64,000 nucleotides of DNA from an uncultured bacterium (GCA_963844965.1 CAWJQC010000007.1:96001-160000); one strand, 5' to 3'; shown: positions 18,968 to 20,375, counted from the stretch's first letter. Notes: generated by a model from the letters alone, not told the origin. Numbers and translations: made by a program.

Positions 18968-19141
18968 TAGTTCTTGTGGCTCTTGCCTGCCGGCAGGCAG
19001 GCAATAGGGTTTGGCCAACAGTCGTCTGTCATCTATCTGTCCGTCACAGCATCGCTTGGCACTGGCTTGAAAAAATCCGCCGAGAAGCGGTTTTTATTGA
19101 CTGGAAAAATTCGCGAAAAAGTGGGACAATAAGACAAAACC

Positions 19142-20107
19142 ATGAAAAAGAAGGCGATAAAAAATGAAATTGTAATATATCAGGCCAAAAACGGAGCGAT
19201 AGAATTTCGTAAGGACTTGCGCGCAGAAACGATTTGGGCAACGCAGGCGCAGATCGTTAAACTTTTTGATATTGATCAGTCAGTAGCTTCGCGGCACATA
19301 AGCAATATCTTCAAGGACGGCGAGGTTGACAAAAAAAGCAATATGCAAAAAATGCATATTGCAAATTCGGACAAACCAGTTGTTCTTTATTCACTCGATA
19401 TGATTTTAGCAGTCGGATATAGGACGAACTCGGGACGGGCGATAACTTTCCGCCAGTGGGCAACCAAGACCTTGCGGGCGCATATTATAGATAGCTATAC
19501 CATCAACCGTGCTCGCATTGCCCAGAATTACGAAGTTTTTCTGAAAGCGGTGGAAGATGTAAAAAAACTTCTTCCAACGGGCGGAGCAGTGGATATTGTC
19601 AATGTATTGGAATTGATCAAGACATTCGCGAGTACCTGGGTATCGCTGGATGCCTACGACAAATCCGCTCTGCCAAAGAGCGGCGCTACAAAAAAACAGG
19701 TTAAACTGACGGCGCAGGATTTCTCGGCCGCGCTCCTTGAACTTAGGCGGGAATTAACGGCCAAAAAAGAAGCCAGTGAACTTTTCGCGGTTGAACACCA
19801 GAAAGGAAACGTGACCGGTATAGTCGGCAACGTACTCCAATCCTTCGGCGGCAAAGACCTCTATCCAAGTGTTGAAGAAAAAGCGGCCCACCTTTTGTAT
19901 TTTATGGTTAAGAATCATCCGTTCACTGACGGCAACAAACGAGCAGGCGCATTTTCGTTCGTATGGTTTTTGAGAAAAGCCGGATTGCTGAATACCGCGC
20001 GCCTTACTCCCGAAGCCTTGACGGCGCTCACTCTGCTCGTTGCGGAAAGCAGTCCGAAAGACAAAGAGCGGGTAGTCGGATTGGCTCTTCTGCTTTTAAA
20101 AAAGTAG
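19142..20107 (+). CDS. RhuM-family protein with C-terminal Fic/Doc (Doc-type HPFxDGNKR) domain
   Basis: N-terminal RhuM-like block (IVIYQAKNGAIEFR...TQAQIVKLFDID...SRHISNIF). C-terminal HPFTDGNKRAGAF matches the Doc toxin motif. Confidence 0.7.
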   Translation: MKKKAIKNEIVIYQAKNGAIEFRKDLRAETIWATQAQIVKLFDIDQSVASRHISNIFKDGEVDKKSNMQKMHIANSDKPVVLYSLDMILAVGYRTNSGRAITFRQWATKTLRAHIIDSYTINRARIAQNYEVFLKAVEDVKKLLPTGGAVDIVNVLELIKTFASTWVSLDAYDKSALPKSGATKKQVKLTAQDFSAALLELRRELTAKKEASELFAVEHQKGNVTGIVGNVLQSFGGKDLYPSVEEKAAHLLYFMVKNHPFTDGNKRAGAFSFVWFLRKAGLLNTARLTPEALTALTLLVAESSPKDKERVVGLALLLLKK

Positions 20108-20375
20108 TTGCGACGAACCATCGAACAGTCCCACCCGTGCTCATCGGGGTTTAGTATTGGGGTGCGAAGCAGGGTGGTGAATGCGGCCTTTTTATATCCG
20201 GAGGATACCGCGTTCTACTGCTCTGGCCCGGCTAGGTTAATTGCCCCGACCTTGCGTCGGGGCTACTACCCATGAGCCCCATGGTGAAATTGCGACCAAA
20301 AATCGTGGCCGTAGGCCTTCGCAATTTCTACTATCGGGGCTGGAAAAATTCGCGAAAAAGTGGGAGAATGGGGAT

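Follow-up and report, generated by a model that had tools for sequence, protein, structure and literature searches.

A short direct repeat, possibly a duplicated core promoter, around a RhuM/Fic gene beside a restriction-modification pair in a Patescibacteria genome

What is the role of a 26-nt sequence that stands, letter for letter the same, in front of two neighboring genes, one for a RhuM/Fic protein and the other for a restriction endonuclease (REase)? In the 64-kb window considered here (the whole stretch of DNA that was analysed), a first-pass annotation had pointed out this identity, and had taken the sequence for a shared leader whose 3′ end supplies the ribosome-binding site (RBS) of both genes and which implies either common regulation or a common mobile origin of the two. 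The identity of the copies and their distances to the start codons are as described there, and the repeat does look like a promoter-proximal module common to both genes. However, neither the RBS nor the common origin is borne out by the comparisons below, and a different reading of the same bases is proposed.

The repeat and its two copies

The 26-mer, CTGGAAAAATTCGCGAAAAAGTGGGA, occurs exactly twice in the 64-kb window, both times on the plus strand, at 19101-19126 (copy 1) and at 20340-20365 (copy 2), 1239 nt apart. Counted from the end of the 26-mer, copy 1 is separated from the Fic ATG (19142) by 15 nt, and copy 2 from the REase ATG (20376) by 10 nt. With up to 3 mismatches allowed, neither strand of the window holds a third copy, and 100 dinucleotide-preserving shuffles yielded no match; by our own estimate, ~5e-7 exact 26-mer pairs are expected by chance in 64 kb. 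The repeat is real and far beyond chance. The similarity can be extended to 30 nt, up to 19130 and 20369, over which 29 of the 30 positions are identical, the exception being position 27 with C in copy 1 (GGGAcAAT) and G in copy 2 (GGGAgAAT). The last two bases of a TTGACT at 19097-19102 are also the first two of copy 1. Apart from an 8-bp palindrome, TTCGCGAA, the 26-mer has no dyad-symmetric arms. Over 18676-20413, both copies included, the sequence is 100% identical in a separate Logan assembly of run ERR10755942 (L001), and the same architecture is found on contig L019 from a different sample (see below); therefore, the repeat is not an assembly artefact.

The sub-motifs AAATTCGCGAAAA and GAAAAAGTGGGA show no enrichment elsewhere in the window, and this rules out a generic promoter or RBS motif, the explanation that the first-pass annotation itself had considered. 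Beyond the window, 22-mer scans of genome and metagenome collections gave only chance matches within coding sequence, namely KIREKVG peptides in a response regulator and in GuaA; these collections are incomplete, as the metagenome scan missed L019 although the exact 22-mer is present there. Viral contigs contain no match to the repeat and none to the hairpin described below, the spacer and the repeat are unmatched in phage and plasmid records, and a chimeric multi-frame peptide query for ORFs crossing the spacer or the repeat in other contexts returned nothing. Between 18900 and 20500, no Rfam family is detected at gathering thresholds or at E values up to 10, and tRNA scans of the repeat region are likewise negative. 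Exact-protein look-ups for strain variants or an empty site, with the 186-aa gene upstream of copy 1, the REase and its partner methyltransferase, led back to the same sample or to nothing, and the searches as a whole returned no empty site, circular junction or third copy.

The Fic gene, the restriction-modification pair and the affiliation of the repeat

The gene behind copy 1 (19142-20107, plus strand, 321 aa) matches Pfam Virulence_RhuM and Fic, and the PADLOC phage-defence candidate PDC-S23 over its full length (residues 3-320, E 1.7e-101). Judged from these matches, it is a full-length member of the RhuM/Fic/DOC (PDC-S23) family with an N-terminal RhuM domain and a C-terminal Fic domain, and hence a defence candidate. 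More than 7,400 homologs are found, mostly in Patescibacteria and often as solitary genes. Homologs at 72-73% are solitary and wedged between housekeeping genes, for example in the order secDF-Fic-purN, and have neither the spacer nor flanking repeats. The absence of the repeats at two loci where the gene is solitary among housekeeping genes (L020 and L023) rules out that flanking repeats are a general feature of Fic insertions. An apparent homology of the Fic promoter region with L020 lies in low-complexity, A-rich sequence; it is ambiguous and was set aside. As a full-length PDC-S23 match, the bracketed gene resembles the single-gene Fic defence candidates SoFic and PDC-S23. SoFic is a Fic-domain abortive-infection toxin, which is neutralised by a small downstream gene, AS1 (PMC12249575). 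Unlike SoFic, the Fic gene here has no conserved small ORF downstream. A small antitoxin ORF is thereby ruled out, the 232 nt at this place being non-coding and structured, and so is a type III RNA antitoxin, as the repeat scan shows no tandem repeats.

The gene behind copy 2 (20376-21062, plus strand) encodes a 228-aa protein without any match in Pfam, PADLOC, NCBIfam or PHROG and without a sequence relative in the PDB. In an alignment of 30 sequences, D82, E94 and K96 are invariant and stand in a PD...ExK arrangement. The AlphaFold (AF2) model has a pLDDT of 90.9, and its best structural matches by Foldseek are SwaI, EcoRV, NlaIV and HincII. On the strength of the invariant residues, the confident model and the structural matches, the protein is, as modelled, an EcoRV-like type II endonuclease with an EcoRV/SwaI-like PD-(D/E)XK fold. 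Its gene converges on and overlaps a gene on the minus strand (21037-22617), for which profile matches (N6_N4 MTase) indicate a fusion of a LexA DNA-binding domain, an S24 peptidase and an N6/N4 DNA methyltransferase (LexA-MTase); in the other loci, too, the REase gene is always convergent with the MTase gene. The two genes make up a type II restriction-modification (R-M) pair in that a PD-(D/E)XK fold adjoins an MTase and the pairing is conserved, their enzymatic activity being predicted. TCGCGA was tried as a target of this pair that the genome would avoid; the site is not avoided, with 34 observed vs ~41 expected. The pair occurs in Patescibacteria metagenomes in several contexts, namely next to a serine recombinase and an HTH_36 gene, in the grpE/dnaK interval and in a prophage-like region, and it behaves as a mobile two-gene module.

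To which of the two sides does the repeat belong? The REase homologs at L004, L008-L010 and L011 (71-77% identity) and at L025 (74%) are all paired with a LexA-MTase, and their upstream sequences differ. In four of these contexts (L004, L008, L011 and L025), the 26-mer is absent upstream of the REase, and what similarity there is falls within the window-wide null; even the best score, 19 for L025, is equalled by 9% of random 208-nt windows from the same genome. A repeat native to the REase is ruled out by these four contexts. Instead of the 26-mer, all R-M loci share a different conserved motif, CTGTGGATAACTT, in front of their MTase genes, and the region upstream of the REase in L004 carries the CTGTGGATAA motif of the module. 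The native upstream region of the REase is missing from the window locus.

The closest homolog of the Fic protein, P0122 (83% amino acid identity), is encoded on a 2.2-kb JGI contig, L019, in the order repeat, Fic gene, structured spacer, 65-nt hairpin and repeat. Positions 19112-20371 of the window align to it with 82% nucleotide identity over 1284 nt. Starting inside copy 1, where the contig ends (...CGCGGAAAAGTGGGAAAATAAGACAAAACCATG), the homology runs through 20371 and breaks off 4 nt before the REase ATG of the window. Copy 2 of L019, CTAGAAAAATTCGCGAAAAAGTGGGAGAATGG, has 1 mismatch to the window repeat, and it is followed by a 274-aa gene which is unrelated to the REase, matches no family and shows no synteny with the window. 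Along the unit, the identity amounts to 93% in copy 1 plus leader, 98% in Fic codons 1-38, 59% in codons 39-95, which form a swapped RhuM segment, 91% in the rest of Fic, 93% in the first spacer block (20108-20134), 39% in the mosaic middle of the spacer (20135-20265), of which a stretch of ~66 nt is absent from L019, 95% in the hairpin, and 97% in copy 2 plus 6 nt. Since copy 2 of L019 is contiguous with the Fic gene and precedes an unrelated gene, and since the other R-M contexts lack the repeat, both copies belong with the Fic side, with which they appear to travel, and copy 2 is not the native R-M leader. These two observations also speak against the common mobile origin of both genes that had been suggested. 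A target-site duplication of a transposon is ruled out as well, because L019 has the same repeat before a different downstream gene.

Hairpins, gene starts and the reading of the repeat

Copy 1 is directly preceded by a terminator-like hairpin, AAAAAATCCGCCGAGAAGCGGTTTTTATT (19070-19098), which ends the upstream 186-aa gene. The terminator scan reports a terminator-like site on the minus strand at 19090-19077, and the same stem is followed by TTTTTATT on the plus strand. Between the Fic gene and copy 2 lies first a structured non-coding spacer (20108-20275, plus strand), with no conserved ORF and no Rfam family, and then a long conserved stem-loop of ~21 bp with an inner GGCC-GTA-GGCC hairpin (20276-20340, plus strand). 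By folding, the latter reaches -34.2 kcal/mol (z = -4.8; z = -4.0 for the L019 version), so that the hairpins noticed upstream of copy 2 in the first-pass annotation are real. The stem-loop abuts copy 2, overlapping its first base, and has no U-tract after it; an A-to-G change between the window and L019 retains pairing as G-U. The hairpins before copy 1 and copy 2 are not homologous to each other. The resemblance to IS200 ends that had also been noticed turns out to be insignificant: in local alignments of the intergenic sequence against 7740-7873 and 8260-8345 on both strands, 5% of shuffles attain the score of the best case, and the loops of the hairpins are not alike (CTTTAG vs GTA). In IS200/IS605-derived elements, subterminal hairpins and no direct repeats are expected. 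An element of this kind is ruled out here by the lack of significant similarity to the IS200 ends and by the presence of direct repeats.

The combination of hairpin and direct repeat could also mean that the copies are recombination sites, that is, att-type cores, or direct repeats at the ends of a small integrative cassette that is moved in trans, the hairpin being part of the site and the likeness to a promoter incidental. With 26-30 nt, a length typical of the core identities of tyrosine integrases, the direct repeats flank a single accessory gene; the Fic unit is found in two contexts, a strong and conserved hairpin abuts copy 2, and a gene of the excisionase-family HTH type (17644-17886) lies 1.2 kb upstream. 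Moreover, in L008-L010 a 24-nt repeat of the 3′ end of tRNA-Ile abuts the same REase, and repetition of a tRNA 3′ end is a classical signature of att sites. Despite these points we regard such sites as unlikely. The ORFs that were scanned in the first 34 kb of the window include no integrase or other recombinase, and dyad symmetry within the repeat is limited to TTCGCGAA. An empty attB did not come to light, and the genome, metagenome and viral scans gave no further copies. The hairpin ends, ...GAGCCCC and GGGGCTGG, are without the GTTRRRY or RYYYAAC core of integrons, by which an integron cassette (attC) is ruled out. If the copies were nevertheless recombination sites, an excised circle would show a hairpin-repeat-CAATAAGAC junction.

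A shared 5′-UTR, RBS or operator leader that co-regulates Fic and the REase, with, for instance, the LexA-MTase or the HTH protein binding to it, would account for an identical sequence upstream of both genes, and the TTCGCGAA palindrome is located where a repressor would block RNA polymerase. As an RBS, copy 2 together with the next base does give GGAG 10 nt before the REase ATG, but copy 1 ends in GTGGGAC without GGAG and stands 15 nt from its ATG, and Shine-Dalgarno sequences are missing from most window genes. As an operator, the repeat would have to be reconciled with the different motif, CTGTGGATAACTT, upstream of the MTase genes in all R-M loci and with the absence of the 26-mer from the other R-M loci. 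Furthermore, the HTH gene is surrounded by another palindrome, GTTAACAATTGTTAAC, and between the window and L019 the repeat stays unchanged, although the DNA-binding segment of RhuM (aa 39-95) has been exchanged. A leader of this type is thus quite improbable in our judgment, and the 3′ end that had been taken for an RBS, GTGGGA(C/G)AAT, reads better as an extended -10 element.

Indeed, positions 2-30 of the repeat can be read as a promoter with a -35 element TGGAAA, a 17-nt spacer that contains the 8-bp TTCGCGAA palindrome, and an extended -10 element TGg-GA(C/G)AAT. In copy 1 (plus strand), the predicted -35 TGGAAA lies at 19102-19107, TTCGCGAA at 19110-19117, TG at 19122-19123 and the -10 GACAAT at 19125-19130; in copy 2 (plus strand), the corresponding positions are 20341-20346 for TGGAAA, 20349-20356 for TTCGCGAA, 20361-20362 for TG and 20364-20369 for the -10 GAGAAT. 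The reading preferred here, to which we give an even chance, is that the repeat is a duplicated core promoter of the sigma-70 type bracketing a portable Fic/RhuM cassette, with copy 2 driving a leaderless REase mRNA. Both the promoter activity and the mobility of the repeat unit are what we infer from its sequence.

This reading has to be seen against the gene starts of the source genome. The upstream 45 nt of 56 window genes contain few Shine-Dalgarno sequences and many -10-like boxes just before the start codon. Among 54 window genes, TANNNT is most frequent 6 nt ahead of the start codon (6 genes), and TGN[TG]ANNNT is found at offsets 6-8 in 5 genes, while the other 37 offsets together have 3 occurrences. 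The LexA-MTase gene begins with TGATATAAT-GGAAAT-ATG, an extended -10 at 6 nt, and a VanY-like gene with TGTTAAAAT-TACCTT-ATG. Such -10 boxes 6 nt before start codons imply that mRNAs in the source genome would be leaderless or nearly so. The predicted -10 of copy 2 is placed exactly 6 nt before the REase ATG (TGGGAGAAT-N6-ATG), and that of copy 1 11 nt before the Fic ATG, with identical spacing in L019.

Several features favour the promoter reading. First, the ends of the 30-nt repeat coincide with the span from -35 to -10. Second, copy 2 stands at the same 6-nt offset as the -10 element of the partner MTase. Third, the bases that vary among the four copies of the window and L019, which are position 2 of the -35, one spacer base and position 3 of the -10, fall at tolerant positions of a promoter. 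Fourth, a hairpin precedes each copy. Fifth, when one copy and the insert are taken away, a terminator, a promoter, 6 nt and the REase ATG are left, which is a sensible gene start. However, the match to the consensus is weak, with 4/6 in the -35, 4/6 in the -10 and TG in addition, position 1 of the -10 being G, not T; the predicted promoter (8/12 plus TG) is weak by E. coli standards and is not called by a consensus scan that needs 9 of 12. The reading is further weakened by the Fic ATG, which is 11 nt from the -10 instead of 6 and so not strictly leaderless, and by L019, in which copy 2 lies ~33 nt from the next ATG, so that the geometry is not fixed. The failure to find an empty site, a circular junction or a third copy weighs on the same side, as does the number of instances, which is two, the L019 contig starting within copy 1 with its left flank out of sight. 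Finally, the divergence among the copies fits neutrality.

Neutral divergence is what would be expected if copy 2 were a functionless scar of illegitimate or homologous recombination, already present in the common ancestor of the window and L019, beside which the R-M pair later landed by chance. Substitutions between the copies and between the two elements are no fewer than in neighboring sequence, the instances are only two, and the searches returned other copies from none of the collections. Yet a scar would leave it to coincidence that the repeat ends match the full -35 to -10 span and that the REase ATG stands at exactly the genome-typical 6-nt offset, and the REase, having lost its native upstream region, would be left without a promoter of its own close by; we therefore consider a scar rather doubtful.

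Known analogues and possible course of events

If the repeat is a promoter, the unit of ~1.27 kb would consist of a promoter, the Fic gene, the structured spacer, the hairpin and a second promoter. Copy 1 would start the Fic mRNA with a leader of ~5 nt, and the hairpin, despite having no U-tract, would terminate or stabilise the transcript of Fic. Copy 2 would then restart transcription for whatever gene is downstream, here the REase, whose transcript would begin at the A of the ATG and thus be leaderless, as is usual in the source genome. By such an arrangement of stem-loop and promoter, the downstream gene would presumably be kept expressed. The REase and Fic would also share identical promoters, and a factor acting on the TTCGCGAA palindrome would affect both; by either route, the two genes may be regulated in common.

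The closest analogue of the Fic unit appears to be the PeSLs (promoter-early stem-loops), mobile regulatory cassettes of T4-type phages (Arbiol et al., 2010, PMC2839356; Comeau et al., 2014, PMC4122927). A PeSL is composed of a stem-loop and an early promoter that ends at the next start codon, and it is repeated around single non-essential genes of variable regions (PMC2839356). In the phages, genes are inserted, deleted and swapped when the copies recombine, which also gives rise to mini-circles (PMC2839356, PMC4122927). PeSLs match the sigma-70 consensus, amount to ~50 per phage genome, and have promoter and terminator activities shown experimentally (PMC2839356, PMC4122927). Like a PeSL, the module here is short, repeated and intergenic, has a putative promoter after a stem-loop, and ends just before the next start codon; its copies flank a single accessory gene, and a stem-loop is present at both, the one at 20276-20340 (z = -4.8) abutting copy 2 and the one at 19070-19098 preceding copy 1. 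Unlike PeSLs, it has only 2 copies in 64 kb as against ~50 per phage genome, the hairpins at its two copies are non-homologous, and it resides in a Patescibacteria chromosome, not in a phage. Its putative promoter with an extended -10 is weak (4/6 + 4/6), and, in contrast to the phages, no recombination products came to light.

By analogy with PeSLs, the Fic gene could be looped out or in if the two copies recombine. Without the insert and one copy, the terminator would be followed by the promoter, 6 nt and the REase ATG, an order that is fully plausible as an ancestral state or as an alternative one. The predicted deletion junction, with the promoter joined to the REase without Fic, would read terminator, 26-mer and GAATGGGGATATG, and the predicted circle junction ...CTACTATCGGGG, 26-mer and CAATAAGACAAAACCATG. 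Two histories can be envisaged. A circular or linear promoter-Fic-hairpin segment might have recombined into an existing copy of the same promoter, or the mobile R-M pair might have landed behind the outward promoter of a pre-existing Fic unit. Both fit the data, and either the Fic unit or the R-M module may have moved last. In a much more general form, and with only a slight chance of being right in our estimation, Patescibacteria may shuffle single defence genes in the style of T4 phages, the genes looping out as a circle and re-entering at any copy of the promoter. A working promoter would then always be left for the gene behind the insertion, and at the present locus the second promoter copy of the Fic gene would have been taken over for the leaderless REase mRNA.

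If the promoter reading is true, a small-genome bacterium whose gene starts are leaderless can take up a defence or toxin gene in front of another one while the latter stays active, and a mobile R-M pair that is devoid of its REase control region can be rewired to a foreign promoter. Through recombination at such a repeat, Patescibacteria could plausibly gain and lose single defence genes. For this lineage, the logic of annotation would have to be corrected in that the conserved G-rich end of such a "leader" is an extended -10 element, not a ribosome-binding site. Cassettes of stem-loop and promoter of the PeSL type are already known from phages, and what is described here is a similar architecture in a bacterial chromosome. 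With two instances, it is a lead rather than a result, and a tidy but modest case of gene shuffling.

Two other types of mobile DNA share single features with the Fic unit. First, in outward-facing IS promoters and "moron" cassettes, an inserted accessory gene carries signals that express the gene downstream, as is proposed here. Unlike them, the Fic unit lacks a transposase, inverted repeats and a target duplication that varies with the site, and its putative outward promoter is a copy of the one at the start of the cassette. Second, R-M units reportedly insert with a long target duplication, as is said to have been found in the Kobayashi laboratory, the repeats flanking the R-M unit and copying the local target. 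In the window, too, direct repeats adjoin a mobile R-M gene pair, but they flank the neighboring Fic gene and recur unchanged in another context.

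Direct repeats beside the REase family and matches of the repeat core

In three metagenome contigs with REase homologues (L008, L009 and L010), the 3′ end of a tRNA-Ile(gat) gene is found as a 24-nt exact direct repeat, at 4861-4884 and 4973-4996 in L008. Counted from the tRNA, the second copy is 112 nt downstream, and it stops 4 nt short of the ATG of the REase gene; only 88 nt separate the two copies in each of the three contigs. After the 26-mer, this is the second direct repeat seen immediately beside a gene of this REase family. The only matches that scans of the genome and metagenome collections returned for the 22-mer core, at 6755-6776 of sequence L002 and 9558-9579 of sequence L003, are both intragenic. 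They code for the peptide (R)KIREKVG, one within a response regulator and one within GMP synthase, and were rejected as relatives, being chance coding matches.

Between the window and L019, a 2.2-kb metagenome contig with the closest Fic homologue, the Fic genes share about 91-98% nucleotide identity outside codons 39-95. At these codons (window 19256-19426), which cover the RhuM winged-helix part, identity drops to only 59%, a pattern suggesting that recombination has exchanged a domain inside the gene. In the Fic-REase spacer, about 66 nt rich in hairpins (window 20190-20255) are missing from L019, and the L019 spacer carries a 35-nt partial duplication of the block neighbouring this stretch; the spacer appears to be evolving through small insertions and duplications.

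The LexA-S24-methyltransferase fusion and its upstream motif

The MTase of the R-M pair (21037-22617, minus strand) forms a single protein with a LexA DNA-binding domain and a self-cleaving peptidase domain of the S24 type. Both this fusion and the convergent overlap of the LexA-MTase gene with the REase gene are kept in every locus examined (the window and the metagenome contigs L004, L008, L010, L011 and L025); the REase family itself comprises 276 homologues, largely from Patescibacteria. The conserved fusion and overlap suggest that the R-M system would be under SOS-type or autocleavage control. A conserved motif, CTGTGGATAACTT, with the DnaA-box-like TTATCCACA inside it, stands upstream of the LexA-MTase genes in all loci (window, L004, L008, L010 and L011), and in L004 it is present upstream of the REase gene too. 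The window holds two copies against 0.06 expected, one upstream of the LexA-MTase gene (22658-22667, minus strand) and the other (9691-9700, plus strand) upstream of an unrelated PD-(D/E)XK nuclease gene (9725-10507). As a putative operator, CTGTGGATAACTT could be bound by the LexA-like domain.

Other repeats and gene starts in the window

A perfect 16-bp palindrome, GTTAACAATTGTTAAC, occurs six times within 17571-18380, around and after a minus-strand gene for an 80-aa excisionase-family HTH protein (17644-17886; TIGR01764, E 5e-9). The copies are irregularly spaced (325, 118, 129, 103 and 84 nt), and three of them sit within longer repeat units of 49-68 nt. Their arrangement resembles an array of operators or a series of small transcription units in repeated form.

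At 6776-8935, an IS200-type Y1 transposase gene (7874-8311), with a perfect 20-nt inverted repeat around it (7843-7862 and 8266-8285), is flanked by genes for an N6/N4 methyltransferase (6776-7795) and an Mrr-like endonuclease (8318-8935); it may have separated the two genes of an older R-M pair. A 65-nt direct repeat with 83% identity (34238-34302 and 37856-37920, 3.6 kb apart), each copy of which lies within its own plus-strand ORF, probably marks paralogous genes.

Across 54 gene starts in the whole window, Shine-Dalgarno motifs are infrequent, and -10 boxes, often of the extended form TGn-TAnnnT, are placed 6 nt upstream of the start codon; leaderless gene starts are favoured in the source genome.
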